Source of the DNA: Haliotis cracherodii
Lineage: Eukaryota
Assembly: GCF_022045235.1 (NCBI RefSeq)
Contig: NW_027266297.1
Coordinates: 66,588,001-66,652,000, forward strand
Reading direction: 5' to 3'
Length of the DNA stretch: 64,000 nucleotides
Shown here piece by piece: positions 4,985-52,042 of this stretch. The translations under genes and the position numbers were made by a program. Every line of letters starts with the position of its first letter. The first letter of the stretch is position 1. The notes under the pieces were generated by a model, which ran no database searches, was not told the DNA's origin, and saw nothing but the letters and a program-made list of their open reading frames with translations.

Positions 4985-5450
4985 GTGAGTGAGTGAGTTG
5001 GGTTTAACGCCGCTTTTAACAGTATTCCAGTTATATCACGGCGTGTCAGCTTAATGTGGGAGGAGGGGCGGTCGGGTAGCCTAGTGATTAAAGCGTTCGA
5101 TCGTCACGCCGAAGACCCGGGTTCGATTCCCGATATGGGTACAATGTGTGAAGCCCATTTCTGGTGTCCCCCGCCGTGATATTGCTGGAATATTGCTAAA
5201 AGCGGCGTAAAACCAAACTCACTCACTCACTCACTCACTCATGTGGGAGGAAAGCCCGAAGTGATGCAGGTCTCAGACGTTTACCACTTTGGTGAAACAC
5301 ACGAGCACGTGTATGGTGCTGACAAACCTAGAAACATAATCGGGGCGAACCGGGATTCGAACCCACAATCATAGGTTTCTGGCGTGCCCAAGGGACGCAA
5401 CTCTGCATGGCGAATCGCGGCGCCTTAGACGACTGGGCCACCCGTGCCCT
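4985..5450 (-). mobile_element. SINE family B (tRNA-Leu-like head), interrupted by SINE A
   Basis: Matches copies at 26999, 37615 and 48051; TSD TACATTTTGA; (ACTC)n tail. Confidence 0.9.
5065..5240 (+). mobile_element. SINE family A (tRNA-Asp-like head)
   Basis: A box TAGCCTAGTG, GTCAC anticodon-like loop, B box GGTTCGATTCC, (ACTC)n tail, 11-bp TSD ATGTGGGAGGA. Confidence 0.93.
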
Positions 5451-6260: not shown

Positions 6261-6530
6261 TTTGTTTGTTTTGTTTGTTTGTTCTTAAACGCCGCACTCA
6301 GCGATAGTTCAGCTATATGACAGCGGTCTGTAAATTATCGAGTCTGGACCAGACAATCCAGTGATTGATATCATGAGCATCGATCCGGGCTTTTGGGATA
6401 CGATGACATGCATCAACCAAGTCAGCGAGCCTGACCATCCTGTCCCGTAAGTCGTCTCTCACGACAAGCATAGTTGCCTCTCATGACAAGCATGTTGTTG
6501 AAGACATATTCAACCCCGTGTCTTCAAGCA
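6261..6530 (-). mobile_element. Short retroposon family C copy
   Basis: Family match with (AAAC)n tail; further head fragments at about 6555 and 7230. Confidence 0.85.
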
Positions 6531-6614
6531 CAGTCGCATGTTACGGCGAGCGTTGGTTGCTGAAGACCTATTCCCCGTGATAGTGCATTCCCATGGTGGC
6601 GTTGCTGTTGCTGT

Positions 6615-7045
6615 GATAGTTCATGTTCCTAATGTTGGTGTAGTCCCTAGTATAGGGCATGTTCCTGATGTTGGTGTTGTTCCTGGTACAGGGCTTGTTC
6701 TTAGTGATGGTGTTGTCCCTGATACAGGGCATGTCCTCAGTGATGGTGTTGTCCCTGGTACAGGGCATGTTCTCAGTGATGGTGTTGTCCCTGATACAGG
6801 GCATGTCCTTAGTGATGGTGTTGTCCCTGATACAGGGAATGTTCTCAGTGATGGTGTTGTCCCTGGTACAGGGCATGTTCTTACTGATGGTGTTGTCCCT
6901 GGTACAGGGCATGTTCTCAGTGATGGTGTTGTCCCTGGTACAGGACATGTTCTCAGTGATGGTGTTGTCCCTGGTACAGGGCATGTTCTTACTGATGATG
7001 TTGTCCCTCGTACAGGGCATGTTCTTACTGATGGTGTTGTCCCTG
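6615..7045. repeat. 36-bp minisatellite, about 12 units
   Basis: Unit GGTGTTGTCCCTGGTACAGGGCATGTTCTCAGTGAT. Confidence 0.95.
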
Positions 7046-7420
7046 CAGAGGCCTGGGTTGGGTACATGACATATAAAGTGGTGTAAACATTATTGAAAAG
7101 TACAACATAATTGTCGGTCATTCATTGGTCATGTTTTATCATAACAAATTGATTGTCAAAACCCATACTTAGTAGCAGGACATAGGGCGACACGCCCTTA
7201 AAGAGGGGTGGTGTAACAGCTCAATCATGGGTTGCTGAAGACCTATTCTTCGCCATCTTCCAGAGGCAAGGGAGTTAACTGACTCTAAAAGTCCAGTTTT
7301 CATCCTTGTCGAGCTCGGCTGGTATTATGGAGTTACAATTTGGCTGTACTAACTGTTCTATGCATAGTCCAAACAAAACTGCGCAATGAAATCGAAATCC
7401 GGTTCGTAAAATGTCGCGCA

Positions 7421-8235: not shown

Positions 8236-9114
8236 GTTGTTCGTCATTATGCTTTCGCTTGTTGCAGTAACAATATCGTTATACTTAGACGTGAATGTGT
8301 CTGTGATATCACGTTCTGCACTAAATATGTTCTTAAATCGTATAACTTTTGCATAAAGAAGTAAAGACGATGCATACAGTGCATTCCTGATCCGGATGTT
8401 GAATACAACGCAACATTCTGCTTTCAAGGCTGAAAATTATCACGCTAGAGCTTTCAGCGCGAAACTCCTTTACATATTATGTATTCTTGGTCAGCAATTG
8501 AGAGTCTACGGTTGAGTACCGACGATACAGCATTCACCGGTCCGGCCTGCTCGCTGAGCTGTGATAACAACCCGCCACCGACACCTGTTCCCACGCTCAG
8601 CCTTATCTAGCAGGGGACACAACTCTTACATCATACGCGACAAGGCTCGTGCATCTGCCACACACAAAGCGGACAGACGAACCGGCGTGCACTTGCGCAG
8701 TCAGACGTGCTGGAACGCAGGTTGATTCATAGTCCAGACTCAGCGGGCATTTTTATGTAATGGTGTCAGACGTGTTTGTTCTTTAAATGTACGCCCGGTG
8801 TACACGGCAAGTGGTTTTCGTTTCTTTTTATTAATAAACATTGTGAGTTACGAGTATGGCTCAACACTGATGATTCATCGTTTTGCCGATATCAAACAGT
8901 CGTGTGGTTTAACGACAAACACTTCAACTGCAAGCAAATATTCAACTCATTATGCATATAATTTGACAACAATCTTTGCCAGTAATGTAAATAACCAGTT
9001 TGAAAGGGGCTCACTGAAACGTTGCCATTTTAGTTTTTTTGGCCTCACTTCGTTACACTGACTGTTATTGTTGAATGATGGATAGTTTCAGCTGAACGCA
9101 CCACAGTCGTTTTA

Positions 9115-9952
9115 CCGCATCTGCCATACGACCAGTCGCATCATCCAGACCACCAGTCGCATCTTCCATTCTCCTACTCGTATCGTCAATACCATCAGTT
9201 GCATCATCCATACCATTCGGTGCATCATGCATACCATTCGTCGCATCATGCATAGCATCAGTCACATCATGCATACCACAAGTCGCATCATGCATACCTC
9301 AAGTCGCGTCATCTATACCATCAATCAAATCATGCCTATCTTTCGTCGCACCATGCATACCACAAGTTGTATCATCCTTACCACAAGTCGAATCATCCAT
9401 ACCATCAGTCGCATCATGAATACCACAAGTCGCATGATCCATACCACAGTCGCATCAATACCACCAGTCGCACCATCCATACCATCAATCGCATCATGCA
9501 TACCATCAGTCGCATCACCCATACCATCAGTCGCATCATGCATGCCACAAGTCGCGTCATCCATACCATTCGGTGAATCATGCACACCATTCGTCGAATC
9601 ATGCATACCATTCGTCGCATCATGCATACCACTCGTCGCATCATGCATACCACGAGTCGCACCATCCATACCATCAATCGCATCATGCATACCATAATCG
9701 CATCAATACCAACAGTCGCACCATCCATACCATCAATCGCATTATTCATACCATTCGTCGCATCATCCATACCACAGTCGCATCAATACCATCAGGCGCA
9801 TCAATACCACCAGCCGCACCATCCATACCATCAATCGCATCATGCAAACCACAAATCGCATCATCTATACCATCAATCGCATCATGCATACCATCAGTCG
9901 CATCATGATTACCACAAGTCGCATCATCCACACCACAGTCGCATCATCCACA
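9115..9952. repeat. 21-bp minisatellite with shorter variant units
   Basis: Unit CATCATGCATACCATCAGTCG; produces the MHDATDG-type pseudo-ORFs. Confidence 0.93.
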
Positions 9953-9986
9953 CACAGCGAGACATAACGTCACGTGGGCACCTGCC

Positions 9987-10250
9987 GGGTACCCATGTTA
10001 CAACAACGGAGTTAAGTATGTTCACAACGGGTACCCATGTTACAACGGGGTAAACTGAAGAAGTATAGGGTTAATTGTGTGGACAACTGGTACCCATGTT
10101 ACAACGGGGTAAACTGAAGGAGTATAGGGTTAATTGTGTGGACAACGGGTACCCATGTTACAACGGGGTAAACTGAAGGAGTATAGGGTTAATTGTGTGG
10201 ACAACGGGTACCCATGTTACAACGGGGTGAACTGAAACAGTGGAGGGTTA
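9987..10250. repeat. 59-bp tandem repeat, about 4 units
   Basis: GGGTACCCATGTTACAACGGGGTAAACTGAAGGAGTATAGGGTTAATTGTGTGGACAAC. Confidence 0.9.
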
Positions 10251-15248: not shown

Positions 15249-17435
15249 TAACACCATTACATGGCCCTACGGGGGTCTAACACCATTACATGGCCCTACA
15301 GGAGGTTTAACACCATTACATGGCCTAACAGGGGTCTAACACCATAACATGGCCCTACGGGGGTCTAACCTACAGGAGGTTTAACACCATTACATGGCCC
15401 CACAGGAGGTTTAACACCATTCCATGGCCCTACACGAGGCTTAACACAATTACATGGCCCTACACGAGGAGTAACACCATTACATGACACTACACGAGGC
15501 CTAACACCATTGCATGGCAATACACGAGGTATAACACCATTACATGGCCCTACACGAGGCCTAGCACCATTACATGGCCCTACACGAGGAATAACACCAT
15601 TGCATGGCAATACACGAGGAGTAACACCATTACATGACACTACACGAGGCCTAACACCATTACATAGCCCTACGTGAGGTCTAACACCATTACATGGCCC
15701 TACACGAGGTATAACACCATTACATGACCCTACACGAGGCCTAACAACATTGCATGTCAATACACGAGGTATAACACCATTGCGTGGCCCTACAGGAGGT
15801 CTAACACCATTACAGGGCCCTACATGAGGTCTAACACCATTACATGGCCCTACATGAGGTCTAACACAATTACATGGCCCTACGTGAGGTCTCACATCAT
15901 TACATGGCCCTAAACGAGGTCTAACACCAGTACATGGCCCTGCATGAGGTTTAACACAATTACATGGCCCTACGTGAGGTTTAACATAATTACATGGCCC
16001 TACGTGAGGTGTAACACAATTACATTGCCCTGCATGAGGTCTAACACAATTATATGGCCCTGTGCGAGGTCTAACACCATTACATGGCTCTGCGCGAGGT
16101 CTATCACCATTACATGGCCCTAAACGAGGTCTAACACAATTACGTGGCCCTACATGAGGTATAACACAATTGCATGGCCCTACATGAGGTCTAACACAAT
16201 TACATGGCCCTATGTGAGGTCTAACACCATTACATGGCCCTAAACGAGGTCTAACACCATTACATGGCCTTACGTGAGGTTTAACACCATTACATGGCCC
16301 TACGTGAGGTTTAACACAATTACATGGCCCTACACGAGGAATAACACAATTATATGGCCCTGCATGAGGTCTAACACCATTACATGGCCCTGCGCGAGGT
16401 CTAACAACATTACATGGCCCTAAACGAGGTATAACACAATTACATGGCCCTACATGAGGTCTAACACAATTACATGGCCCTATGTGAGGTCTAACACCAT
16501 TACATGGCCCTAAACGAGGTCTAACACCATTACAGGGCCTTACATGAGGTTTAACACCATTACATGGCCCTACGTGAGGTTTAACACAATTACATGGCCC
16601 TACGTGAGGTCTAACACAATTATATGGCCCAGCGCGAGGTCTAACACCATTACATGGCCCTGCACGAGGTCTCACACCATTACATGGCCCTAAACGAGGT
16701 CTAACACCATTACAGGGCCCTACGTGAAGTCTAACACCATTACATGGCCCTACACGAGGTATAACACCATTACATGACCCTACACGAGGCCTAACACCAT
16801 TGCATGTCAATACACGAGGTATAACACCATTGCGTGGACCTACATGAGGTCTAACACCATTGCATGTCAATACACGAGGTATAACACCATTACGTGGACC
16901 TACATGAGGTCTAACACCATTACGTGGCCCTACATGAGGTCTAACATCATTACATGGCCCTGCGCGAGGTCTAACACCATTATATGGCCCTGCGCGAGGT
17001 CTAACACCATTACATGGCCCTACACGAGGCCTTACACCATTGCATGGCAATACACGAGGTATAACACCATTACATGGCCCTAAACGAGGATTAACACCAT
17101 AACATGGCCCTACACGAGGCCTCACACCCTTACATGGCCCTACATGATGTCTAACACAATCACATGGCCCTACAGGAGGTCTAACACCACTACATGGCCC
17201 TATAGGAGGTCTAACACCATAACATGGCCCTACACGAAGTCTAACAACATTATATGACAATACAATAGGTCTAACATCATTACATGACCCTACACGAGGC
17301 CTAACGCGATTACATGGCCCTACACGAGGTCAAATACCATTACAGGGCTCTGCGCGAGATCTAATACCGTTACATGGCCCTACACGAGGTCTAACACCAT
17401 AACCTGACCCTAAGCGAGGTCTAACCTCATTATGT
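15249..17435. repeat. 30-bp satellite, about 72 units
   Basis: Unit AACACCATTACATGGCCCTACACGAGGTCT; source of the 631-aa minus-strand ORF. Confidence 0.97.
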
Positions 17436-20709: not shown

Positions 20710-20778
20710 TGAATATTAAAGAAGTTGTTATCCATAAATCGTGTCATCCGTCAACTTCTAAGTAATGCCTATCAAAAA
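20710..20778 (+). mobile_element. Fragment of the hammerhead-associated (Penelope-like) repeat seen at 39744-40073
   Basis: Shares TATTAAAGAAGTTGTTATCCATAAA...CAACTTCTAAGTAATGCCTATCAAA. Confidence 0.7.
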
Positions 20779-21057
20779 ACAAAAGGTATCCCCTGTATTT
20801 TGCTACCCGTGGGGTGTCCACCCACCAAAACCCCCAGCCTCCACTTTCCCCACTTGGTAGGGGCATAACAACGTAGAGATTAAGTGGCGGGTGTAGTCCA
20901 CTACATCATTAGGGGGTCTTCATTCAATCAATGTATTTTCATCGCAAAAGCTTGTCTATCATGGAAAAGGCAACCTTTCAGTTCTGTGGGGAAAGGTAAT
21001 CTGGGGGCATTCTGTGCATCCAGCGGTGACAAGGTTATCTTGACATTTTCACGTCAT

Positions 21058-23294: not shown

Positions 23295-23351
23295 ATGGCG
23301 GCGTCAGGATGTGTGCGACCATGCTTCATCGTATTCAATCTGCTGTTTTGG
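23295..23351 (+). CDS. Tetraspanin 1 exon 1 (MAASGCVRPCFIVFNLLFW)
   Basis: ATCATGG start context, 19 codons, GTAAGT donor, paralogous to the exon at 62257. Confidence 0.88.
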
Positions 23352-26300: not shown

Positions 26301-29300
26301 CATCCGAGTTCTGTCTTCATCCTAACCAGAGGCACTGATAGAGACAGCCTGTCAATAATTGATTATATGCCAACATTTGACGATAAGGAATTAATAGTCC
26401 AGTCCTATATTACCCCAAGAAACAAGTTTATTGATTTCATAATTTTGCGCGTGGGGTGTGATCCTCTCAGTACGGGATCTTAGTTCACCTTGACCTCAAC
26501 AATGTGACCTTTGACCTTGAGTCGTCCTCCGACGTTAATCCGGTCATTCACCCACATGGGACCTTATGTCCGTCGGTAAAGACTATTCTCCAAGTTACTG
26601 ATTACATAAAACGCAAGTTTATATACATAAAACCACCGTATGTTTTAATCAGTGAACCTTAAACTAAATCGTCTTACGTTATGATCAGCGTACCGTGTTG
26701 TAATATGTACTCCGATTTGCGTTAACATTTCAGACATATTGGCAGCGTGGAGTATTATGTGTGGTGAAAATTGTTGAGGTTGTGTGATAATCTCAGTGGC
26801 TAATTCAGCTTTAATAACGATGTCGCCTCTGTTACCTAGGAATATCTGTTTCAGAGACGATAACTTTACATCAGTGGAAAGTTTCGTTCTTAAACTTCAA
26901 ATGACATTCACAAGAAATAATGTCATTACTCAAGTCAAGTTTATTTCGTAATTCAAGCCACATGGACCACAGGACATTTGTAATATAAATTATATCTAGT
27001 GAGGGAGTGAGTTGGGTTTAACGCCGCTTTTAACAGTATTCCAGTTATATCACGGCGTGTCAGCTTAATGTGGGAGGAAAGCCCGAAGTGATGCAGGTCT
27101 CAGACGTTTACCACTTCGGTGAAACCCACGAGTACGGGTATGGTGCTGACAAACCTAGAAACATAATCGGGGCGAACCGGGATTCGAACCCACATTCATA
27201 GGTTTCTGGCGTGCCCAAGGGACGCAACTCTGCACAGCGAATCGCGGCGCCTTAGACGACTGGGCCACCCGTGCCCCCTAAATTATATCTAAGGTCGATC
27301 TCATCATAAATAATTTTCATGAATATAAAGCTATCAAGCGTAGTACATTAATATCACAGGAGTTAAATAAATTTGCAAACGTAATATTTCCCTTTTAATA
27401 TTTCTGTAATAAAGTAAAACATCATTTTTCAAGTGAAAACATTTCTTACATACAAAAAAGACATGGTAGTCATCCTCTACTAAATGAAGGTCACATTCTT
27501 TACATATAGATTCTGTATGAGGTATATTTAACAATGACCTTTTACGAATAATGTGGACTCGAAAGTTGTGAAGAGATATTCGAAAGTTATACATTGCTCT
27601 ATTTGTTTGAGTACCGTTATTTTTTATTCGAGTTGCAGAAGAGATGTTATATTAGTATAATGCACTAAAAGGTTGACGACTCTAAACTGTGGTACCATCA
27701 TTAGAAATAGATATCTCTTAAGCGTATTCTAAATGTAGATAAAACATGTTGTTTATCGCAAACATCTTGGAATAACCACACATACGCAAAACCGCTATCA
27801 AATAACATTTGTCTCACATACGAGGCCCAATTGACTTTTCCATTCTCATCTAACGCTTCGAGCATAACATAACCTTAGAAGGGGTATCGACTTGCCTATC
27901 ATATCACCAACGGGAGATATCGCTTGGGTTCGTAGAAATCATGTGTGTACTAGTATAAATATCACTTCTCGCGTACCAGTGTATTGTTTCAGTCATCAGA
28001 ACGACATTGATGACATCATTTGAATCTTATTGTGACGTAAGGTCGGAATGACGTCACACTAGAAATGACGTCATAGCCAAAGATTGTTGACGTCATTCCA
28101 CAATGTGGTTTTCTAGGACAGCGGTAGTGATCGGCGCCTTTTCTCTAAACGGAGCTCAAAAGAATTAGGATATAATGTGCAAATAAAGAAATTATTACAC
28201 TTGCATGTGTGCCACATTGATTTTACGAAACTCTTGTAAGAATGCATGTATTACAAGAATTCAGACACTCGTTTCGTAACATCAGAATGACACATATGCT
28301 CGTACAATAATCTCTATGTATCTGCAAATCTTTGTCTAATCGTTGATTGACAAATCAAAATTCCGAGTTTCGTGAAGGTAATTCTAAAGATGATCCATTG
28401 TAAATTTAAGAAAGGAAACCAAGATAAATCATGTGGTAAATGTCAACTATTAAATACACTAATTTTATCAGTTTGTGCCTTCATGAAGGAAACGGTTGGC
28501 GTCTTGTTCTGATAATCGTCTGATAATCGCTAAAACTACCTGTGCAGATATTAACAAGTTATGCTAAACCCCATTCCAAGAGTATGAGTAATATGGACCC
28601 AGTGAATGATTGTGTTAGTCGTGTTGGGCATGTTGAGTCGCCGTCAGTCACTAGAACCAAGTGCAGTATATGGCCATGTTGCAGGTAATTATGTGCTCAA
28701 CATACCCGTCCTCGAGGCCATTATTATGCCACCCGAACTTAAATAAAACTGCCACATAAAATGTACGTGCAGTACTACAGGCAGGTGGTGTTTACGTCTT
28801 GTCATACATATAACGTCATCTACCGAACAATAGACACACACTACCAAGCTCCTTCCCAGCGCGTGACACCTTTGTTATAGAGGGCTCCGCGAACGGGCTA
28901 TCGCTGTGAGGAGCCTGGCAATTAAATCAAATGCATAAACATGCCTCCTCGACGGACTATTCTGATAAGGACAATACATCCTGGTGCATTTCAATAAAAC
29001 TTTGAACTATAGATGTGTCGTCTTACCACGGAACAAAACAACACGTTATGGCTTGTTGTATGAATTGACGTCGGTTGTTTGCGTTGTGTCTTGCTATATA
29101 GACAGCCTGAGACAATATTGGTAATAATTTAGCAGCAAACTACATAAAACCCGTGTATAGAAATCTCAGTATTGTTTTTCCTGAATTAATTTATGTACCA
29201 ATTCCAGCCATTATTTCATTATACTTTGAATTAACCTTGACGAGAACCCCCTTGTCTTGATTTGGACAGGGGTAGTCGGGTAGTGGTTAAAGCGTTCGCT

Positions 29301-32300
29301 CGCCACGCCGAAGACCCGGGTTCGATTCCCCACATGGGTACAATGTGTGAAGGTTTCTGGTGTCCCCCGCCGTGGTATTGCTGGAATATTGCTAAAAGAG
29401 GCTTAAAACATACTCACTGATTTAGACAGACACCTACTTATTCATTGTGCCAATTTAACGTGGTATTTCAACGAAAGCCAGGGTCAAAGTGGCTGGATCA
29501 GTGTATATACACTCACGTCAAAACGCAGCAATTGTCGATTTGCAATGTCTCAGACGGCATTGCTTTCACACCTGTTCAAAAATGTCAAGGAGGAAAACCG
29601 TAAAACGAAATGCACGTGCAAGTTATGGCATTCGTAACTCGTGGTAGTGGCTATAAAAAGCTAATAATTTGTCATTCAATTGTCAACATTTTTCAAGTTC
29701 GAAAATGCCGACACTCAGTGCTGCCGTTTCGGAACATCACCAAAGGACGTATCCAAATATGGGAATCGCAGTCTTCTGTTGCACGCCACTTCAAACAGCA
29801 CCCTTTGCCGCCTTTGTGACTGATACACACAGTTCAATTCTACTACAGACCGCCCGAGAACCGACCGACCAAGAGTTACCACACCTGCACAGGATCGCTA
29901 CATTCGACTGTTCCACCAACGTCATCGCACTGCCACAGCTACACCACGAGATCAGACTTGGTTGTGGTTTCAGGGAAATTTGACAGCAAATCGCTACATA
30001 AATCAAATTCTTCAGCATCACCTTCTTTCAATCATTGACCGCCAGAGGGAGCTGTTTCAACAGGACAACGCTCCACCGCACACAGCTCGTGTCAAGGTAG
30101 ATTACCTTCATAATGCCATCATCAACGCCTTGCCCTGGCCGTCGAGATCTCCAGTTCTAAACCTAATCGAACACCTCTGGGATGAACTCGATCGACGTGG
30201 ACGTCAACGTCAGAACACGCCACATACACTCCCACAACAGACCAACGCGTTACAATGAGAATGGCGCAGAATTCCGCTGGACAGAATTCCTACACTTATC
30301 CAGTCAAAGCAGAAGAGATGCAGAGCCACGACTGCTGCCCGGGGCTGTCACACGACACATAAAATACTGATTTCAGCCACTCCTTGTGACATAATAGTGA
30401 ACAGTTTTCAATGCCTTTGTACAACGACAACATGTGACTATCGAGCTCAAATATGTCGACTTTATTAGGTACAATACCTTTACAAATATCTACCGGTGCG
30501 TTTCTTTTTTTGAAGAGTGTGCGATTCAGGATCAGTTACGTGTTTAGTTGATCATTGTGCCACATTAACGTAGTATGTCAACAAAAACCGGGGTCACCGT
30601 GATCGGATCAGTAGCTATATGATTCAGGACCAATTACGCGTTCAGTTTAATCCGAGGTTTTATCTTCCAGGTCGTATGTGCGGATATATAATTGCAGTCG
30701 GATTGCAGATACTGTTTGATGGCAATTCTGGCTTATGGCAATTTTTGTTTCACATGTACGTTTCATTACATGGGTGGGTGATCCTGTTAATGAGGAATGG
30801 ATGTGTTCATTGTGTTTGAGTCGCTTCACATTTCATTGAGGTACTAGTATTATTTTATACCCTATCTTAACTCTTGTCGTCTCACGTTCCGGGGAAACGC
30901 CAAATTCACCCTCCCCTCACACTCCCATGTCAACGTGACCTCGACGGCATTTCATGGTTTCAACACAGGGGTGAGATAAACAACGTGAAACTGACACCTG
31001 CAGGTAGTGGTTGTGTCCCTTTGTTACCGACACGCAATTGAACAAGTACAGCTTGGTACATTTTTGTTGATCTCAAATGCCTGGTCTATAGCTGATGACA
31101 TTGGATATACTGACTGTGTAACACACCCTGGTCTATAGTTGACAACATGGGCTATACTGACAGTGCATCACACCCTGGTCTATAGTTAACAACATGGGCT
31201 ATACTGACGGTGTATAACACCTGGTCTATAGCTGATAACTTTGGATATACTGCAGTGTATAACACCCTGGTCTATAGTTGACAACATAGGCTATACTGAC
31301 AGCGCATAACACCCTGGTCTATTGTTGACAACATGGGCTATGCTGACTGTGTATAACACCCTGGTCTAAAGTTATCAACATGGGCTATACTGATAGTGTA
31401 TAACACCCTGGTCTGTATATAACACCATGGGCTATACTGACAGTGCATAACACTCTTGTCTATAGTTAACAAAATAGGCTATACTGACAGTGGATAACAC
31501 CTGGTCTATAGTTGGCAACATGATCTATACTAACAATGTAGGACACACTGGTTTATAGTTAACAACATGGGCTATACTGACAATGCAGGTCACCCTGGTT
31601 TATAGTTAACAACATGATCTATACTGACAATGCAGGTCACCCTGGTTTATAGTTAACAACATGATCTATACTGACAATGTAGGAGACCCTGGTTTATAGT
31701 TAACAACATGGGCTATACTGACAATGCAGGTCACCCTGGTTTATAGTTAACAACATGATCTATACTGACAATGAAGGAGACCCTGGTTTATAGTTAACAA
31801 CATGATCTATACTGACAATGTAGGAGACCCTGGTTTATAGTTAACAACATGGGCTATACTGACAATGCAGGTCACCCTGGTTTATAGTTAACAACATGAT
31901 CTATACTGACAATGAACGAGACCCTGGTTTATAGTTAACAACATGGGCTATACTGACAATGTAGGACACACTGGTTTATAGTTAACAACATGATCTATAC
32001 TGACAATGTAGGAGACCCTGGTTTATAGTTAACAACATGATCTATACTAACAATGTAGGACACACTGGTTTATAGTTAACAACATGATCTATACTGACAA
32101 TGTAGGACACACTGGTCTATGATTAACAACATGATCTATACTGACAATGTAGGAGACCCTGGTTTATAGTTAACAACATGATCTATACTGACAATGCAGG
32201 TCACCCTGGTTTATAGTTAACAACATGATCTATACAGACAATGTAGGTCACCCTGGTTTATAGTTAACAACATGATCTATACTGACAATGTAGGTCACCC

Positions 32301-35300: not shown

Positions 35301-38300
35301 TAACTCACGTGTACGTCTCATGTTTCTTCCCGTATATCACGGTCGGAGGTCAGATGGAACATTGAACACAATAGCAATGTGACTCGTACCAGTTCCCACA
35401 ATTCAGACTCCAATAAAAATGTTGCAATGACGTCTGTATTAGCTGAGTTGTGTACCTGAGAATGGGCATAGGTGCTGCAGGCGTGTCCTGTCGCCATCAA
35501 CGCCTGGCGTACGGCGATACACTGATTCTATCAGTAATATAAAATAACCAGATATACATCTGGATATAACACCTAGCTTTTGCCACAACACTTTGGTTGA
35601 AGTGATAGACCGGCAATAAATATATACATCGGAAGGTACTATACGTAAAATGGTCATGAAGCTTGTCTCATTATATAAACAGCAAAATCTCTGCATTTGT
35701 AATTCAAAGATAGCATACATGGCATATCGTTCACAGTTTCAACAAAACGGTAAAAAACAGTATCGTGTCACTGGATTGTCTGTCAAGACTCGATTATGTA
35801 CAGGCCACCGTCGTATAGCAGGAGTATTGGTGTGTGGCGTTAGGAAACAGAAAAAATACTTTTTAAATGTAAATTTTGTGTTGGGGTAATTTCCGTTAGA
35901 ACAGGACATGCTTAACCTTTTCGAGAAACCTGCATTTTCGCTAAGTTCCAGTGATCCATTCACAGAATAATTTTTATTTTCACCGCTATTTTAGCCTTAA
36001 CACCCAATGGAATCGGCAGAAAATCGATGCTGGTTATCCTCTGACGTTGTCAGTTCATACATATAAGGAATGGACCCGTCACAGTTGGAGTTTTGTGTGC
36101 CAAAAGCTAATTTGAATCCCAGTTGCTACCATGTCAATCGAAGGCTACTTTCGACTCCACATCACCAACACGATTACATAATATTGTCAATAAGGAAGAT
36201 AATATACAAGTTGACAATATTTCAACGTACAGTAAACTACGGTTATAACGAACACGGTTATAACGAACTGACAGATATAACGAACTTACTTTTTGGTCCC
36301 GACTATTTGCTGTAGTTATGCTGTATATATGCTTATAACGAACTACGGTTATAACGAACTTAGTAGTCCCTTTGAGTTCGTTATAACCGTAGTTTACTGT
36401 AATATCAAGCGTAAATTTACATGTTGCTCGATGAATAATCTTCCAGTTTAAAGTAATTCACTATCATGTATGTTCCGTTTATTTTGCAGCTGATGGGCCT
36501 TTTCCTCGTGGGCTTCATGGCCTGGACAATGGCCACCAACCCGGCTCTGATCACCGGTTTCATCTCCGGCTCTAGGGTGAGTGAGGGACTTATCTGGACG
36601 TGGTCTCGACATATGTTAGCGTCTGCTACCTAGATCAATATCAATATGTTACACAGGGCACAACATAGTTCCCTGATATAAATTGCTGGGCAAAAAAGCA
36701 TGCACCCATGTTTGATGGTGGCTAAATAATAAACCAACAAAATGGCTATTCGATGGTACGTATTTGACACAGGTATTGTTTTGGAGATAAAGTTTGCACT
36801 GTTTCGGTGGCTGTAACGTTTGTAGTTTTTCGGTCAAATTCAAGTTTCAAGGGCATGTAAGTGGGAGTTCATGATTTCATATCATACACCTGTCACAGGG
36901 GGCGGTTTGGTAGCCGACCCGTGAAGATCCGTTGTAGAATAGGTCCTCAGTAACCCATGCTTGCATTAAAAGGCGACTAGGCTTGTCGTAAGAGACGACT
37001 AACGGGATCGGGTGGTTAGGCTCGTTGACTTGGTTGACGCATGTCTTCGTATCCCATTTGCGTGGATCGATGCTCATGATGTCAATCACTGGACTGTCTG
37101 GTTCAGACTTCAGATTTACAAACGGTCGCCATATGGCTTGAATATTACTGACTTCGGCTTTAAACAACAAACAAACATTTGAGTAGCCTAGTGGTTAAAG
37201 CGTCCACTCGATGCCGAAGACCCGGGTAATTGGCCTGTTAAATTATGTTGACCTTGATTTATGTGGGAAATTATGGCCTCCAGCAAATCTGAATTTCACA
37301 TTTGTTCTTTTTCGTGAGTTACCATGTAGCTAGTTATATAATCATTTATAGATTATGAATAATTCCGGGGCGGTCGGGTAGTGGTTCGCTCGTCACGCCG
37401 AAGACCCGGGTTCGATTCCCGACTAAGTACAATGTGTGAAGCCCATTTCTAGCATCCAACGCTGGAATAGCGCTAAAAGCGGCGTGAAACCATACTCATT
37501 TATCAATACTTTTCTTTCAGTATTTTACCTACTCCATACTGGGTGCAGGCGTACTCATCGTCTTGGCAGGTAAGGCCATATATTTCGTTATATTACTTAT
37601 GTTCACACATTACAGGGGGCACGGGTGGCCCAGTTGTGTAAGGCGCTGCGATTCGCTGTGCAGAGTTGCGTCCCTTGGGCACGCCAGAAACCTATGATTG
37701 TGGGTTCGAATCCCGGTTCGCCCCGATTATGTTTCTAGGTTTGTCAGCACCATACCCGTGCTCGTTGGTTTCACCGAAGTGGTAAACGTCTGAGACATGC
37801 ATCACTTCGGGCTTTCCTCTCACATTAAGCTGACACGCCTTGATATAACTGGAATAATGTTAAAAGCGGCGTTAAACCCAACTCACTCACTCACTCACAC
37901 ATTACAATGGCGTCAAGAAACACGGGGAACGCTCAAGATCAAGATATCAAGATCTGTGTAGATAGTCGTACCATTATAAAAAGCGGCAGGACCTTTACTT
38001 GCGTCGTATATAGTTCGAACCATTGCTCGATGCCATCTAGTCTCCGGTCTTATCTTCATCTCTTGGATACCGGATACTGATGCCGTCACAGGTGACTGAT
38101 CAAATACATTAGCATAAATGTTACATCCTGTCAGCAAAATAGGGTTGCTGAATTATTTATTCTGTGAACATATCTGATGCAAATATTATTGGTTTTGTTT
38201 GCAGGTCTGTTTGGGTGCATCGGCGGACTGAAGGAAGGGACATGTCTCTTGAAGACGGTATGTCCATAGGGTGTCACGGTAGACCGGTTGATCCACCCGG

Positions 38301-41300
38301 GAGCTTCCTGTTATTCCTATTGTGTTCTGTCAGGGTACTTGTATTGTTGTATATCTTGGGTTGATTGAACATATTGTGTCTTGTCAGACGTGTAAACAAA
38401 GGTTTAGTGTGTCAGTCTCAAAACATTAAGCACCGTGAAGATTCGGGTAGAATAGGTCTTCAGTAACCCATGCTTGCCCTAAAAGGCAACTATGCTTGTC
38501 GTAAGAAGCGACTAACAGGATCGGGTGGTCAGGCTCTCTGACTTGGTTGATGCATGTCATCGGATCCCAATTGCGTGGATCGATGCTCATGATGTCAATC
38601 ACTGGATTGTCTGGTACAGACTCGATTACTTACAGATCGCCGTTATATAGCTTGAATATTGCTGAGTGCGGCGTTAAACAACGAACAAAGAAACAAAATA
38701 AAATATGTCCGAGTTTCATCACAAGCTCAGTATAATTTATCAGTTATGAGTCAACTACGAAAGAAATGTTTGTGCCGAGACGTTAAAACCTCCCGCACTG
38801 TGATGCAAAACGAATGTATGTCTTAAACATTATTGTACTTATAATCAACGGAATTATATACACAGCAGACGTAATTCTATATGTGAACTTGGTTGATGCA
38901 TGTCATCGTATCACAATTCCGTGGATCGATGCTCATGATGTCAATCAGTGGATTGTCTGGTCCAGACTCGATTATTTACAGACCGTTGTCATATCACTTG
39001 AATATTGATGATTGCGGCGTTAAACAACAAACAAACAAACATTAAGTTCATGTCAGTTTGTTTGAGGACGAAAAACAGGTTTATGAAGACCTCGTTGTGG
39101 AATGCACCCACATACAACAGTGAGTGAGTGAGTGAGTTTAATTTTAAGTCACATCATAGAATAGTACAACGTAACGGAATTAATATAGTCTTAAGTATTG
39201 TCATCTTTAAAGGGAACTATAATCCGGTATGTACACAAACACTTTATATCTCGTTTCTATGGATACCTATACCAACAGTTCAATAAAAATAACCAAGGGT
39301 GTTTGTGCACGCTACGCTATTGCATTTCTGGATGTTAGATATTGGCTTCGACTGACATGGTTGCAAACGCATCTGAACCAATATACTGGCCCTATAGAAA
39401 TAAATATCAACAGAGAAAATATAAGAACGATGGAACCCCCTGATAGTTGTGTCGGACCTGTAAGAATGACAGAAGACTTTCAACTTATTCTTATTCTTGG
39501 TGTTTATATATAAATGTGTCTTTCTTGCATACAAATTATACTTACATACGACGTCGTCTGAGATCCACATATAACTTCCTTGGATATCCAACACCCAACA
39601 AGGCATTCACTATACATTGTTTTCGTCCAATGTGTTGAGTAGGATGAAAGCTCATTGAAGATGTTCTGCATCATGGACCTAAATATGTTGTTGTTTGGGC
39701 CTGTGTCTGCACATAAAGATTAACAAGTAACAGAATCGTTATGACTTGCTTGACAACGGTATAAGGATCTATACCGAAACGTCGCCTTTTTACAGTATTA
39801 AAGAAGTTGTTATCCATAAAATTGTGTCTATCTTGACTTGTTTGATAGGCATTACTTAGAAGTTGGCGATTGACAAGATAGACACAATTTTATGGATAAC
39901 AACTTCTTTAATACTGTAAAAAGCGACGTTTCGGTATAGATCCTTATACCGTTGTCAAGCGCTTGACAACGGTATAAGGATCAAGCGCTTGACAACGGTA
40001 TAAGGATCTATACCGAAACGTCGCTTTTTACAGTATTAGAGAAGTTGTTATCCATAAAATTGTGTCTATTTTGAGAATCGTTATGGTCCTGTGACCTGTG
40101 TCCACTAAAATGGGTTGAGGACCCCGATTTCGATGTAATTTTCGAAAATGAGCTCCATTTCCCAACTCTTTTTTTGCTCAGTTTATGATAACAAAGACAG
40201 CGTTCAACAAACATGGCGACGGTTAACCCTTTTTGCTTCGACACAATAATGGGAGACTGGTACGAGTATATTCATTTTAAAACAGTGCCTTTCAACTGTG
40301 ACCATCGCATTCCGCGTGAATTGAGTGTAATCGTTTTGTTTCCTAAACATACGTAAATACGATAAACTTTCACATGAGCCGGGTTCAAAAGAGAAACTCC
40401 AGAATAGACACTTGGGTAATGAATTGCTTGTTCTTCCACTGAAAAAAAACATCATTCGTGTGTTGTTGTTTGCAGTTTATCGCCTTCGCCATCATCATCT
40501 TGTTGATAGAGATCGGCGGTGCTGTGACGGCTTACATGATGCAGGGTGAGGTAAGTTTCTCAACATCTACATGATGCTGTCAGGATAGCACCGTGGAATA
40601 TGCGGTCGCTTTGCACAGGGAAGAGTTCAGTTCCTCTCGGGTACTGCTGCGTGTAGACTAGCATCTAGTCTCTGAAATGAACATATCGTACAGAAAAAAC
40701 AGTTGTTCAGTTATCTTAATAAAAATATAATAAAAAGGGAGCCCAGTGATTCTCTTCATTTTCAGAAGATACTGATACAGCAGTAATCTAGACTTGCCAA
40801 ACATTATAGACTTGCATGGGCTGTATTTGATATATATTTGTATCAGGGTCTGTAAGACATACTATGCTGCATGTATCCCTACACACCCCTCTCTCGCGTC
40901 CTTGTGTGTGCCTCATCATCCTTCCCGGGATACATGTCAATCTTCTCAATAGTTTAAAAAAGCGGGCGTGTTCTTCTTAGCGCTTTGTCGCCCTTTACCA
41001 TCGGTAACACCCGGACTGCTTTATAATGAAGTCCAACCAGAAACGTGTATCTTTAAACATGGGAGGCAACATGCTATAGCGTCGCCGAGAAATATACACA
41101 GCAATTGGTGGTAAAGGGTCAAGTGAGTGAGTTAGGGTTAACGCCGCTTTTAACAGTATTTTAGTTATATTACGGCGTGTCAGTTTAATGTGGGAGGAAA
41201 ACCCGTGATGTTGTCCACTTTGGTGAAACCCATTAGCATGGGTATGGTGCTGACAAACCTAGAAACATACTCGGGGCGAACCGGGATTCGAGTTTCTGGC

Positions 41301-44300
41301 AAGGGACGTAACTCCACAATGCGAATTGCCGCGCCTTGGGCGACTGGGCAAGGGTGTCCCCTTTAAGGGTCCAACGTTATCATGATTATCAAAACTGTGC
41401 CAATATTGCTGTAACGTTTTTAATATCCCTTTTTTATAAACCTGAGAAATAAAAGTTGCAAGAATGCACAGTTGTATACCGTAATTGTACATCGCGGATG
41501 AATGTTCTAATATTGATTATTCATTATTGTTCAACATTTCAGTTACAAGTGTATCGGGATTCCGGATGGACTGACTTCAACACAGATACCAAGAACTTCC
41601 TGCAGACGGAGGTAGACCCGCCTTTGAACTACACTGGTGTTGCAATATCTGTCTTTTCTTGTCAAATAACATGCTTATGTCTTTGAGTGACCTACGAAGT
41701 TAATATGTTTATTTGTAGCGCAACACGAGTGAAAATGTCAACTGTGCAGGTCACGAGATATTTTTGGTGTTATTTTGCTGTTTAGAGCCGCACTCAGCAA
41801 ATTGACGGCGGCATGTAAATAATCGAGGCTTAACCAAACAATCCAGTGATTGATATCATGAGCAGATATCCACGCCGTCAGGGTATGATGACACACCGAG
41901 TCAGACCACCAGATCCATTAATTAAGTCGCCTCTTACGACCAGCATAGGTCTTTGGAGGTCATTCTGACTCGGACTCTCCGAGATGAGATTAACATGATA
42001 TTTGACAAAACGACATTTGTCCTATTTATATTGCTATTTGAAAACAATAGTGTCATTGCGGTAAACAGGAAGTACTGACACCTGCATTAAGTGTTCTCTC
42101 ACTCGAGTGATATATCGATGGGTTAGTTGGAGATATAGCATTTCAATGCTAAATATATAATATAACGTTGAATACTATATTCATATACAACATTAAATGA
42201 TGATATTGACGACGATGCAACAAAAATAATTATTTATTGATGAATATGAAAAAACAATGATGTTTGAGTCAAATTGCCTTACATAGCAGCTGTATGTGGC
42301 GTTGTGTGTGTTCCAGTTGAAGTGCTGCGGGTTCAACAGCGCCTCGGAGTACGGCTCCACCGTGGCCGACTACCCCGACAGCTGCTTCTCAGACCCGTCA
42401 TCCAAAACTGTGGCCAATCAACACAATGTAGGTCTGGGTTGTTTTTTCAAAGGCCTTTTTTGTTTCAGGCTTTAGTTGTCATCGATTATTATTTCATTCT
42501 ATTAATAAATAGAATTTTTTTTAATTTTTGAAATTAAAATTAAACGAAACAAGGATGTTGGTACATTTATATCCGTAGGGAAAGTATCCGATTCTTGAGC
42601 CAGCGAACTTGTATTGGGATAACCTTGAGGCAAAGGATGAGGGGATGTAGCTTCATCTGCAACATGCTTGCTGATGCACATGTACGTGCCCCCACCCCAC
42701 CCCCGGTACCTGTAAATATTAAACGTCAATGCATGAGAATAACCAGTCTTGATTATACGCAGAAACAGAATCCATATGACGTAAAGGGCAAACACAGTGA
42801 ATTGAACCACACACCCTCTCCTGTTAAAGCATCGTGGATGGTTACGTTGTTGCAATGTGTTGTTTCTCCAATTAATATCTCATTAAGCTGTTGGCTTTCT
42901 GCTCCAGGCTGTATGTTGGACTAAGATCAACGAATGGCTGGACAGCAACATGGCGATATGGGCGGGCACACTAGGGGGCGTGGCGCTTGTCCAGGTATGT
43001 ACGATGGTAGCTGATAGATGATGGCCATGTTTGGCTCCGAGCTTCCTGTTGCAGGATCCTCGACAATGTGCGATGATATATGTGGAACAGTACATTGATG
43101 AGATTTCTGTGAACTAAAGTATCAACTTGTTAGACGTCTTTATGGTACACTTCAAAAGACGCATGGAGTTAAAATAACTGCCGAGGAGACTTGTAGGAAA
43201 TAATGTCATTAAATTGATAGGTTTCAATTATTATTATGTTATTATTTGTCGGACACTCTCAACACAATAAATTGTACACAATGCATACATATATCGCGAT
43301 GATTAATTAAGGAAGAATGTGTGCTAATACTTTTAAGTGAAAATATGAGTTACTGTAATTACAAGAAATGCAAAAAATGCGATAAACATCATCATTTAGC
43401 TTTGATCTGTCGACCCGTCCAATATTTTCCACCTCTGTGTCGACACTCCAACATGTTCCACCTCTGTGTCGACACTCCAACATGTTCCACCTCTGTGTCG
43501 ACACTCCAACCTTTTCCACCTCTGTGTCGACACTCCAACATTTTCCACCTCTGTGTCGACGCTCCAACATTTTCCACCTCTGTGTCACACCGCGGTGAAA
43601 ATACTTTTCTGTATTTCCATTTTAGTTTTTGACATTTTCGCTGTTGTTTTTGACATTTTCGTTTTTGTTTTTGACATTTTCATTTTAGTGTTTGACCTTT
43701 TCGTTTTTGTTTTGGACATTTTCATTTTAGTGTTTGACATTTTCGTTTTACATTTCAGAGACTCAATAGCTACTTGAAAGTTCATTTTCAATGTTTTCGG
43801 TTGTTGTTATACATGATTTATCACATATTTGTATGACAAATTGTGTTAATTTGCAAAAGGTTACGATAAAAGTAAGTGAAACATCAAACTATTGAAAAAC
43901 AGACTCCATGTCCCTTATGGGCCACCCAAGTCCAACACTTTCCATCTCTGTGTCGACTGTCCAATACTTTCCACCTCTGTGTCGACTGTCCAACACTTTC
44001 CATCTCTGTGTCGACTGTCCAACACTTTCCATCTCTGTGTCGACTGTCCAATACTTTCCACCTCTGTGTCAACTGTCCAACACTTTCCATCTCTGTGTCG
44101 ACTGTCCAACACTTTCCACCTCTGTGTCGACTGTCCATTACTTTCCACCTCTGTGTCAATTGTCCAACACTTTCCATCTCTGTGTCGACTGTCCAACACT
44201 TTCCACCTCTGTGTCGACTGTCCAACATTTTCCGCCTGTGTCGACTGTCCAACATTTTCCACCTCTGTGTCGCCTGTCCAACACTTTCCACCCCTGTGTC

Positions 44301-44661
44301 GACTGTCCAACACTTTCCACCCCTGTGTCGACTGTCCAACATTTTCCACCTCTGTGTCGCCTGTCCAACACTTTCCACCCCTGTGTCGACTGTCCAACAC
44401 TTTCCACCTCTGTGTCGACTGTCCAACATAATCCACCCCTGTGTTGACTTTCCAACATTATCCACCCTTCTGTCACCTGTCCAACATTTTCTTCCCATGT
44501 GTTCCATCCAGATCGTGAGCCTCATCCTCGCTATAGTGATGCTGTCCAAGGTGAAGAAATCCCGCAAGGTGTCGTCCACATCCTCCAATGGCCAGGCATG
44601 GGATGCTCGTCACGTCGGGGGACGACATGCCGGACGCAGGGATGGTGGTCGGCAGTATTAG
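23295..44661 (+). CDS. Tetraspanin gene 1, complete spliced CDS of 9 exons, 245 aa: join(23295-23351,36490-36576,37521-37569,38205-38257,40476-40550,41543-41611,42317-42427,42908-42994,44512-44661)
   Basis: Hand-assembled exons with GT-AG introns and compatible phases give MAASGCVRPCFIVFNLLFW/LMGLFLVGFMAWTMATNPALITGFISGSR/YFTYSILGAGVLIVLAG/LFGCIGGLKEGTCLLKT/FIAFAIIILLIEIGGAVTAYMMQGE/LQVYRDSGWTDFNTDTKNFLQTE/LKCCGFNSASEYGSTVADYPDSCFSDPSSKTVANQHN/AVCWTKINEWLDSNMAIWAGTLGGVALVQ/IVSLILAIVMLSKVKKSRK...GRQY*. Tetraspanin hallmarks: FN..FW in TM1, GCIG..KE..CLL, polar E in TM3 and Q in TM4, CCG, PDSC and a final Cys in EC2. Intron 1 contains an N gap. Confidence 0.93.
24235..24410. mobile_element. Tc1/mariner-superfamily (pogo/Tigger-type) MITE
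   Basis: TIR CAGTAAA(C/G)TA(C/T)GGTTATAACGAAC, TA TSD, copies at 36230 and 47020. Confidence 0.88.
24437..24569. other. Assembly gap within tetraspanin 1 intron 1
   Basis: Run of N. Confidence 1.
25533..25648 (+). mobile_element. SINE family A, 5' truncated
   Basis: B box and tail match. Confidence 0.8.
26999..27278 (-). mobile_element. SINE family B, full length
   Basis: 13-bp TSD TAAATTATATCTA, A/B boxes, (ACTC)n tail. Confidence 0.93.
27340..27895 (-). mobile_element. Degenerate non-LTR retrotransposon ORF2 C-terminus
   Basis: ICKECDLHLVEDDYHVFFVC zinc-knuckle-like motif and VNWASYVRQMLFDSGFAYVW segment typical of the ends of invertebrate LINE ORF2. Confidence 0.65.
29268..29418 (+). 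mobile_element. SINE family A copy
   Basis: Family match. Confidence 0.85.
29510..30519 (+). mobile_element. Tc1 (DD34E) transposon, internally deleted and frameshifted
   Basis: FQQDNAPPHTA...LPWPSRSPVLNLIEHLWDEL with 34 residues between D and E; N-terminal MPTLSAA...ESQSSVARHF; degenerate CACTC...GAGTG termini. Confidence 0.9.
31078..33081. repeat. 47-bp minisatellite, about 42 units (intron 1)
   Basis: Unit CTGGTTTATAGTTAACAACATGATCTATACTGACAATGTAGGAGACC. Confidence 0.96.
33480..34285. repeat. 25-bp minisatellite (intron 1)
   Basis: Unit ACATATCAACGTTACAAACACGTGT with degenerate edges. Confidence 0.92.
36230..36399. mobile_element. pogo/Tigger-type MITE, opposite orientation to the 24235 copy
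   Basis: Same TIR and TA TSD. Confidence 0.9.
36490..36576 (+). CDS. Tetraspanin 1 exon 2 (end of TM1, EC1)
   Basis: TTTTGCAG acceptor, GTGAGT donor, 29 codons LMGLFLVGFMAW... Confidence 0.9.
36916..37176 (+). mobile_element. Short retroposon family C, full length
   Basis: GACCCGTGAAGATCC head to (AAAC)n tail. Confidence 0.9.
37367..37500 (+). mobile_element. SINE family A, ending about 20 nt upstream of the exon 3 acceptor
   Basis: Family match. Confidence 0.8.
37521..37569 (+). CDS. Tetraspanin 1 exon 3 (TM2 start)
   Basis: TTTCTTTCAG acceptor, GTAAGG donor, phase 1, YFTYSILGAGVLIVLA. Confidence 0.9.
37615..37894 (+). mobile_element. SINE family B, full length
   Basis: 12-bp TSD TCACACATTACA. 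Confidence 0.93.
38205..38257 (+). CDS. Tetraspanin 1 exon 4 (GLFGCIGGLKEGTCLLKT)
   Basis: TTTGCAG acceptor, GTATGT donor, canonical GCxG..KE..CLL motif. Confidence 0.93.
38432..38695 (+). mobile_element. Short retroposon family C (further 3' partial copy at 38885-39040)
   Basis: Family match. Confidence 0.88.
39744..40073. mobile_element. Penelope-like non-autonomous insertion made of inverted hammerhead-like repeats
   Basis: 12-bp TSD AGAATCGTTATG; three full copies (+,-,+) and one partial copy of TTGACAA-C-GGTATA-aggatc-TATACC-GAAACGTC. Confidence 0.75.
40476..40550 (+). CDS. Tetraspanin 1 exon 5 (TM3)
   Basis: TTTGCAG acceptor, GTAAGT donor, FIAFAIIILLIEIGGAVTAY. Confidence 0.93.
41122..41360 (-). 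mobile_element. SINE family B, degenerate
   Basis: Family match with deletions. Confidence 0.75.
41543..41611 (+). CDS. Tetraspanin 1 exon 6 (EC2 start)
   Basis: TTTCAG acceptor, GTAGAC donor, ends in LQTE just before CCG. Confidence 0.88.
41765..41983 (-). mobile_element. Divergent family C copy
   Basis: Retains GTCGTAAGAGGCGAC and the tail; head is diverged. Confidence 0.75.
42317..42427 (+). CDS. Tetraspanin 1 exon 7 (CCG and PDSC)
   Basis: TTCCAG acceptor, GTAGGT donor, LKCCGFNS...YPDSCF. Confidence 0.93.
42908..42994 (+). CDS. Tetraspanin 1 exon 8 (last EC2 Cys, TM4 start)
   Basis: CTCCAG acceptor, GTATGT donor, AVCWTKINEWL...GVALVQ. Confidence 0.92.
43408..44500. repeat. 29-bp minisatellite in two blocks (43408-43588 and 43931-44500) separated by an insert containing a 21-bp repeat (43615-43755)
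   Basis: Unit GTCGACTGTCCAACACTTTCCACCTCTGT; insert unit TTTTGACATTTTCGTTTTTGT. Confidence 0.93.
44512..44661 (+). CDS. Tetraspanin 1 exon 9 (end of TM4, basic cytoplasmic tail, stop)
   Basis: CCATCCAG acceptor, IVSLILAIVMLSKVKKSRK...QY TAG. Confidence 0.88.
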   Translation: MVSLILAIVMLSKVKKSRKVSSTSSNGQAWDARHVGGRHAGRRDGGRQY

Positions 44662-50762: not shown

Positions 50763-52042
50763 GTAAACTGTAGATACATGTAGTTAGCCTATGCCTGTGA
50801 TTATTACACATGAATAAAATATAGTATTCATCTTCATACTATTAGTATACTTATAAGCTTCAATTATATGACCCGAGTGAAACTTTTTTTTTTACCTCTC
50901 CCAGATTTAGAGAGGGGCCATAGTTGGTCACTGGTTGACAGTGAGCCAGACTCAAGTCGGGGCTGTTCAATGAGTGAGCTTGTGTGAAAAATCCTATACA
51001 TTTGTGCAAGCATATTCAAGAAAAAGTTCTACTCGTGAATAAGCATCCCCAGTGTCAGTCTTTATCACTTGACGGATTTCATATTTGTAGATCGGATTAT
51101 GGCGACGTTTGGCCATATGAAAGCCATATGAACGTAAGATTCAAATGTTGAGTTGGGCAGGTCATTTGGAACCACAGTCTCATCAGCATCGATAAGTTAA
51201 CGGGGCTTGGAGGGATGAGCATCATTGAGTCAGTTTCATTTCCTGCCCGAGCCCCAGACAACCTTCATAATTCAATCTGTTCACATCTACTCGAGCTCGT
51301 CCCTTCCCCATACAAAGCACAGTTGGTCAGTATTCGTCAATTTTCACTTTGTATCCATGAATTTTCAAAGGGGTGACTGATTCTATGTGATCGGCCATTT
51401 TGTCGCCGTTGATCAGAGAACAGGTGACTACAAATTGAATTTGATTGACATCTATCTCAACCTTGACACATTAAATATGATATCAAACGTGTATGTCATT
51501 TATGATACATTTATGTATCTATACAAATGCATCATGTATACAATTTTGTTTCATTGAGTAATTCTGTATCAAAACGTATCTATTCTTTGAATACACAATG
51601 CTTGTTGAATTTATTCTTGTTTACGGTTGTAATCAAATTTATCAATGGATGAATGAATATATCAAAAGTGTTACAAGAAAGGTCAAAGGGGGCGTATCAA
51701 CTTATCAAATTGAATGCAAGTGTTATGTTATGACAGTTTGTTAAACCTGTCTACGTAGAACCACGTGCATCACTTCGGGCTTTCCTCCCACATTAAGCTG
51801 AAACGCCGTGATATAACTGTAATACTGTTAAAAGCGACGTTAAACCCAACTCACTCACACACGAAGAACATATGTCCACAGATCTATCACGCATAGATTT
51901 TAATAGAAATGTCAGAAATTACCTCCCTGGAATACTCAATGACGTCAGACATCGATCGAGAAACCACAGCATGGCCCATTTAGCGTGATCACACACTCGC
52001 TGAAATGCAACTTGGAGTATCGAGCGGTCTACCAGGTCAAAC

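Follow-up and report, generated by a model that had tools for sequence, protein, structure and literature searches.

The analyzed window, a 64,000-nucleotide stretch of DNA, carries on its plus strand a tetraspanin gene of which eight exons were placed (23295-23351, 36490-36576, 37521-37569, 38205-38257, 40476-40550, 41543-41611, 42317-42427, and 42908-42994), the last exon or exons falling outside this list. The eight have AG/GT borders and join in frame to give a tetraspanin-like protein with a CCG motif. Exon 7 matches the Pfam Tetraspanin family (PF00335) with E values of 2.5e-4 to 4.9e-4, below the whole-protein cut-off, and three exons searched singly against Pfam gave no match. A contig from run X17 of organism A, whose RNA label is a guess, covers 40475-40550 and joins 38257 to 40476; of its loose ends, one matches the exon that stops at 38257 and the other matches the exon beginning at 41543 with a single difference. 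Exon joins, this RNA-labeled contig, and Pfam define a plus-strand intron at 38258-40475, the fourth counted from the ATG exon, and a 330-bp insert lies within it at 39744-40073, where an earlier reading made from the letters alone (the sequence-only reading) had placed it. The gene also contains other repeats. Very high-copy short interspersed repeats are present at 38880-39170 in the host intron and at 40650-40870 in the next one, with maximum raw-read depths of about 3,150 and 185, respectively, and a DDE_3 transposase fragment of the Tc1/mariner type (Pfam E value, 3.8e-8) lies at 29824-30255 on the plus strand of intron 1. Minisatellite arrays at 6500-7120, 9090-10050, 15370-17330, and 43880-44660 contain long open frames, with no Pfam support in those that were scanned. 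A scan for sigma-70 promoters and terminators, the model of which is not applicable to an animal, returned nothing.

The insert is bounded by a 12-bp target site duplication (TSD), AGAATCGTTATG, which is exact at 39732-39743 on the left and 40074-40085 on the right (both on the plus strand) and does not extend further on either side. The 12-mer occurs only twice within the 64-kb window and is the sole exact 12-mer pair there with a spacing of 342. An empty site was recovered from run X11 of organism B, a related species, in which a 786-nucleotide contig aligns over 40074-40286 and continues at its 5' side into letters that match 39702-39731 at 26 of 30 positions when compared by eye. Since the right flank is thus followed back into the left one, this contig carries one copy of the TSD and no insert; the empty site is represented by this one contig from one run of another species, and the contigs listed for the two compared DNA runs of organism A include no such allele. 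Contigs of organism A from two studies (X1 in one; X5 and X6 in the other) cross both junctions: the left within 39465-39770 (X1) and 39445-39770 (X5), and the right in contigs starting at 40042 (X1) and 40044 (X5) and in one from X6 that runs over 40060. The 330 bp are confirmed as a true insertion that is absent from the related species, and the perfect duplication described by the sequence-only reading was found, as was, in organism B, an empty site of the kind that it had suggested looking for. In another X5 contig, 39509 is directly followed by 40356 (by eye), an 846-bp deletion (39510-40355) that takes in the insert and its flanks, and a haplotype without the whole insert region is segregating in organism A. 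The same contig has a 13-bp deletion at 39475-39487.

The 330 bp can be divided exactly into copies of one unit and their junctions. Copy A (39744-39835, plus strand, 92 bp) is a 5'-truncated sense unit resembling a pseudo-LTR (pLTR). It is followed by a 38-bp extension (39836-39873, minus strand) which belongs to copy B and is lacking in A and D, in the manner of the "tail" of a Penelope-like element (PLE). Copy B itself (39874-39960, minus strand, 87 bp) is an antisense unit with a hammerhead motif (U3 at 39958 and predicted C17 at 39925). A 26-bp tandem duplication (39961-39986, plus strand) occupies the head-to-head junction, and copy D (39987-40073, plus strand, 87 bp) is a sense unit with a hammerhead (U3 at 39989, predicted cut after C40022) and two private substitutions. 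Each copy consists of a 34-nucleotide core and about 51 nucleotides downstream of it, with B running 38 nucleotides further, so the insert is not composed solely of hammerhead-like repeats as had been proposed. Just one indel and two substitutions separate the three copies. A and D share their end position within the unit, and a 7-nucleotide direct repeat, TGACTTG, flanks copy A at 39742-39748 and 39834-39840; neither this repeat nor the shared 3' end had been noticed earlier. The head-to-head junction at 39960/39961 is the center of a perfect 22-bp palindrome, in agreement with the palindromic junction reported there from the letters, and the inverted arms formed by B and D are 100 nucleotides long at 96%. 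The "partial copy" reported beside them is a repeated segment that is indeed present, but it is one half of the exact 26-bp tandem duplication (39957-39982/39983-40008). With all 330 bp accounted for by copies of the unit, the earlier statement that the insert holds no coding sequence stands.

The three copies contain a motif with hammerhead grammar, UUGACAA-C-GGUAUA[aggauc]UAUACC-GAAA-CGUC, with U3 at 39750 (plus), 39989 (plus), and 39958 (minus). A strict form of this grammar matched three times in the window and in none of 200 dinucleotide shuffles, which upholds the two sense copies and one antisense copy first described. In copy A the minimal type I motif spans 39748-39785 on the plus strand and comprises the strands of a 2-bp helix I, U3, A8, an extra C, a 6-bp helix II (39758-39775), GAAA, and a palindromic ACGU, with a predicted cut after C39783; this position and C40022 are the same predicted cleavage sites that had been derived from the sequence before. 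The truncated copies have a helix I of 2 bp, against 3 bp in the consensus. Among the 40 of 238 variant rows that were listed, none falls on a core position. An Rfam scan of 38500-41500 gave 13 matches and no hammerhead family, so that of the covariance model search once proposed as a check the Rfam part was negative, and the custom grammar found the three motifs. The best Rfam matches, to microRNA precursors, were far below gathering scores and were caused by the long hairpins, and a microRNA precursor was rejected.

The motifs fit the minimal hammerheads of PLEs, having the core (C/U)UGAN(G/A)A, an extra nucleotide separating position 9 from 10.1, a G10.1-C11.1 pair, GAAA, a palindromic 15.2-16.2 segment, and an NUH site. 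In the minimal hammerheads described for metazoan PLEs, helix II is long, one nucleotide separating 9 from 10.1 is left unpaired, and the 15.2-16.2 segment is palindromic; Schistosoma has a U3-A8 variant, and helix I of Drosophila virilis Penelope is 2 bp (PMC4209133). The extra nucleotide after A9 and the short helix I, which the sequence-only reading had entered as caveats, are therefore published traits of PLE ribozymes, and its interpretation of the motifs as minimal PLE hammerheads agrees with that source in U3-A8, the unpaired nucleotide, G10.1-C11.1, and the palindrome. The closest comparison is with the Cercyon hammerhead of Schistosoma mansoni (PMC4209133), which shares U3-A8, the unpaired nucleotide before helix II, G10.1-C11.1, a long helix II, and a palindromic ACGU in place of helix III. 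It differs in helix I, which is 3 to 5 bp in Cercyon-type hammerheads and 2 bp in the putative hammerheads here, as in D. virilis. The supplement of the same paper gives Schistosoma PLE and gastropod hammerhead examples, and its text describes PLE hammerhead pairs 100 to 700 bp apart on opposite strands.

The unit of about 125 bp is a dispersed multicopy repeat found genome-wide. Raw reads of run X18 were sampled at about 1 in 100 (1,938 million letters), and their depth was 82 to 117 over 39762-39909 versus 0 to 0.7 in flanking bins. A variant in the tail at 39869 was carried by 96 contigs of X1, 99 of X5, and 70 of X7. The repetition of the roughly 125-nucleotide unit, for which a genome-wide search had been proposed, is thus established, and the unit is abundant in both organisms. 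The composite is not. Raw-read depth in X18 fell from 137 at 39887 to 0 at 39963, just past the fold-back, and was 5 at 40039, and a composite-recurrence test in X1 gave a summed contig depth of 314 versus 282,918, contig depths being sums and single-copy depth being near 0 in the raw run. The fold-back junction and the 330-bp composite are not repeated across the genome, and with no raw reads at 39963 against 137 at 39887, mobility of the proposed mini-element as a 330-bp unit is not supported. A second, diverged fragment of the same family lies in the window at 20714-20779 on the plus strand, some 2.5 kb upstream of the exon that holds the tetraspanin ATG; it consists of the 3' part of the unit plus the tail, shares the 38-bp extension of copy B, and has no hammerhead. 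In X1, 205 contigs continue upstream of 39745 with other letters. Their consensus, with a weak agreement of 0.43, has a pyrimidine-rich stretch and then CAG 6 nucleotides before U3, and it resembles a splice acceptor of the kind that D. virilis Penelope is described as having at helix I.

We interpret the 330 bp as the heavily 5'-truncated, ORF-less product of an endonuclease-bearing PLE, consisting of three short copies of the ribozyme-bearing pLTR end, and put the probability of this reading at roughly 85%. PLE insertions are described as having inverted 5'-truncated pLTRs, palindromes at the junction, a tail of 30 to 40 bp at one end, and TSDs of 8 to 10 bp (PMC3846280, PMC8557442). The insert has the features of a stub of an endonuclease-bearing element, namely, a TSD with an empty site, inverted 5'-truncated pLTRs with a palindrome, a tail in the 30- to 40-bp range at one end, and membership in a multicopy family; the match of its inverted layout, one-sided tail, palindrome, and TSD with published PLE insertions supports a Penelope-type origin, and the part of the sequence-only reading that named such an origin is supported by the inverted pLTRs, the 38-bp tail, the TSD, and the U3-A8 minimal hammerheads. 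Insertions of endonuclease-bearing elements in Adineta, Pen2a_Av and a Pen2_Av derivative (PMC3846280), show the same head-to-head inverted ends, junction palindrome, and recoverable empty site. The tail, on one end only in both, is 38 bp here and 31 bp in Pen2a_Av (PMC3846280), and the TSD is 12 bp here versus 8 to 10 bp in PLEs of the Pen2a_Av/Pen2_Av type. Unlike those elements, the insert has no ORF between its ends, its copies are only 87 to 125 bp, a third copy is present at the tail end, and a 26-bp duplication occupies the center. Two of its features speak against the simplest forms of the model: the third copy (A) lies outside the inverted pair, contrary to the simplest PLE layout, and the GC|GC junction is blunt and without overlap, contrary to simple microhomology. 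None of the 69 open stretches scanned in the window matched a reverse transcriptase or GIY-YIG domain, and no autonomous PLE copy with both was found there; these were drawn from 90 open stretches of at least 85 codons, the other 21 being tandem-repeat or overlapping frames. Pattern scans for relatives in metagenome, viral, and prokaryote contigs gave no hit and carry no weight, as these collections are not expected to contain this animal.

Two other classes of element were rejected. A DNA transposon or miniature inverted-repeat element does not fit outer ends that are not mutually inverted repeats, since A begins with a 5' end of the unit and D finishes with a 3' end. Retrozymes, the other name offered by the sequence-only reading, are described as head-to-tail tandems of 150- to 450-bp monomers with canonical ribozymes that make circular RNAs (PMC7229834; bioRxiv 10.64898/2026.07.22.740005). 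The insert has neither such a tandem nor a canonical ribozyme, and its inverted layout, its 87- to 125-bp pieces, and the lack of a helix III loop led us to reject that assignment. It does share with the non-LTR retrozymes of metazoans a noncoding nature, low GC content, a type I hammerhead, a TSD of more than 4 bp, and a relation to PLEs; unlike them, it is inverted and contains minimal ribozymes in pieces of 87 to 125 bp.

A plausible route for a PLE to this product can be outlined, in which the sequence of steps and the blunt join are conjectural. The PLE protein would nick the two target strands at points offset by 12 bp. From one of these nicks, reverse transcription would be primed at a far start site, giving the tail and copy B, and the other would prime at a near start site, 38 nucleotides upstream on the RNA, giving copy D. 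Both cDNAs would stop at the same base, 2 nucleotides upstream of the ribozyme core (U3), and then join head to head. Copy A would be another, third cDNA that began at the near start site, at the pLTR end, and probably became attached at the tail junction through CTTG/TGACTTG microhomology, during that event or shortly afterward, and the 26-bp duplication is probably a later slippage at the center of the palindrome. The hammerheads would be passengers from the parent element. A comparable biochemistry is described for Poseidon of Anolis carolinensis (PAc), a PLE that cuts and extends both target strands and whose reverse transcription starts at two sites, downstream of the hammerhead, that delimit the tail (PMC11167929), as we suggest here. 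From the cut site to the end of the tail, the distance is 89 nucleotides in the insert and about 85 to 92 in PAc (cut at +26, start at +111 to +118, PMC11167929 leaving it unstated which of the two sites this is), and an AC-rich tail end is common to PAc (PMC11167929) and the unit of the insert. Unlike PAc, the insert has no start codon at helix II.

As an alternative source of the same insertion, the unit itself could be a short nonautonomous PLE derivative, pLTR only and SINE-like, that is mobilized in trans, in which case the insertion would derive from such an RNA and not from a full-length element. Nonautonomous PLE derivatives have been published (Chlamys/MRC1 in PMC8557442; bioRxiv 10.64898/2026.07.22.740005), the window showed no ORF in the neighborhood of either copy, and the abundance of the unit in both organisms would suit such a family. 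However, the 205 X1 contigs that run upstream of 39745 indicate that at least some copies are longer than the unit, most genomic minimal hammerheads are described as truncated PLE ends (PMC4209133), and the 330-bp composite is not multicopy. We regard this derivation as decidedly unlikely. Still less probable is an origin of the inner structure (the 26-bp duplication, copy A, or both) as an assembly artifact of the palindrome. Inverted PLE structures are known to trouble assemblers (PMC8557442), and the whole insert is spanned by none of the contigs or reads listed; against this, the outer junctions occur in independent contigs of two studies, from the left flank into A as far as 39770 and from D into the right flank, and A, B, and D each have private differences.

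The sequence-only reading had also proposed that the two sense copies form a dimeric ribozyme in the tetraspanin pre-mRNA, in competition with hairpins against the antisense copy. For 39732-40085, the best ViennaRNA fold (MFE, −190.9 kcal/mol) paired B with D, and in folds of the growing transcript A was already paired to B before D was made. In the full transcript helix II of A was free (P, 0.99), the probability of helix II of D was about 0, and that of a cis helix III was less than 1e-15. The double hammerhead of A and D lay 60 to 63 kcal/mol above the best fold, and a single active center lay 33 or 59 kcal/mol above it. A two-copy dimer in trans had −12.7 kcal/mol compared with −25.0 for the best cofold, and on the minus strand B was likewise sequestered. 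These energies ignore tertiary contacts and help from proteins, and protein help is needed by the PLE ribozyme of the anole. In the pre-mRNA, B is predicted to pair with A or D, which would leave hardly any transcript with both sense motifs free at once.

The idea that A and D cut the tetraspanin pre-mRNA as a cis dimer and tune its expression is, on these models, the least likely of the readings considered. It has in its favor that a nested A/D double hammerhead is topologically possible, that PLE minimal ribozymes cut weakly in vitro as dimers (PMC4209133), and that the helix II of A predicted to be free once D is made would make a partner in trans conceivable. Against it stand the cost of 33 to 63 kcal/mol, the early pairing of A with B, the poor energy of the trans dimer relative to the cofold, and published activities that are low or protein dependent: the PLE minimal monomer is described as inactive with low dimer activity (PMC4209133), and the anole hammerhead as protein assisted and dispensable for insertion in vitro (PMC11167929). 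An intron cut by a hammerhead has furthermore been reported to be spliced all the same, while splicing was blocked by a fast HDV ribozyme (PMC2995048); organism B lacks the insert, and one haplotype of organism A has it deleted. The folding cost thus speaks against a working cis dimer as first proposed, as does the segregating haplotype, and the insert is probably near neutral in the tetraspanin gene.

Understood as a PLE product, the insert is a clean, empty-site-verified example of an already known footprint and a data point for the unresolved mechanism of PLE integration, in which two reverse transcription start sites are used and both strands are extended. Somewhat out of the ordinary are its third copy, whose 3' end is identical, and the way in which the 5' ends gather at the edge of the ribozyme. 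It is tempting, if rather unlikely, to suppose that three reverse transcription starts of a mollusc PLE have been recorded in this one insertion, two at the same base and one 38 nucleotides further out, with all three cDNAs stopping 2 to 5 nucleotides upstream of the core. Were this pattern general in the family, the hammerhead's 5' edge would be a fixed RNA boundary or a reverse transcription stop, for instance a splice junction like that of D. virilis Penelope or the ribozyme in its folded form. The PLE hammerhead would then serve to terminate cDNA synthesis and to join the inverted halves instead of cleaving itself, and the insertion would represent twin priming from two start sites in vivo. 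The import of the insert would be greater if family 5' ends cluster at that edge or if the motifs cut host pre-mRNA, and the present evidence argues against the latter.

Two minor features of the unit concern short motifs. Segments of 21 to 25 bp resembling its CGCTTTTTACAGTATT segment occur at 5006-5026, 27020-27040, 41140-41160, and 51817-51841 (weak BLAST matches) within another repeat family, and their likeness is probably due to chance. Just past the predicted cut site in each sense copy, at 39787-39795 and 40025-40033, lies TTTTTACAG, which by its letters may be a cryptic splice acceptor inside the host intron.
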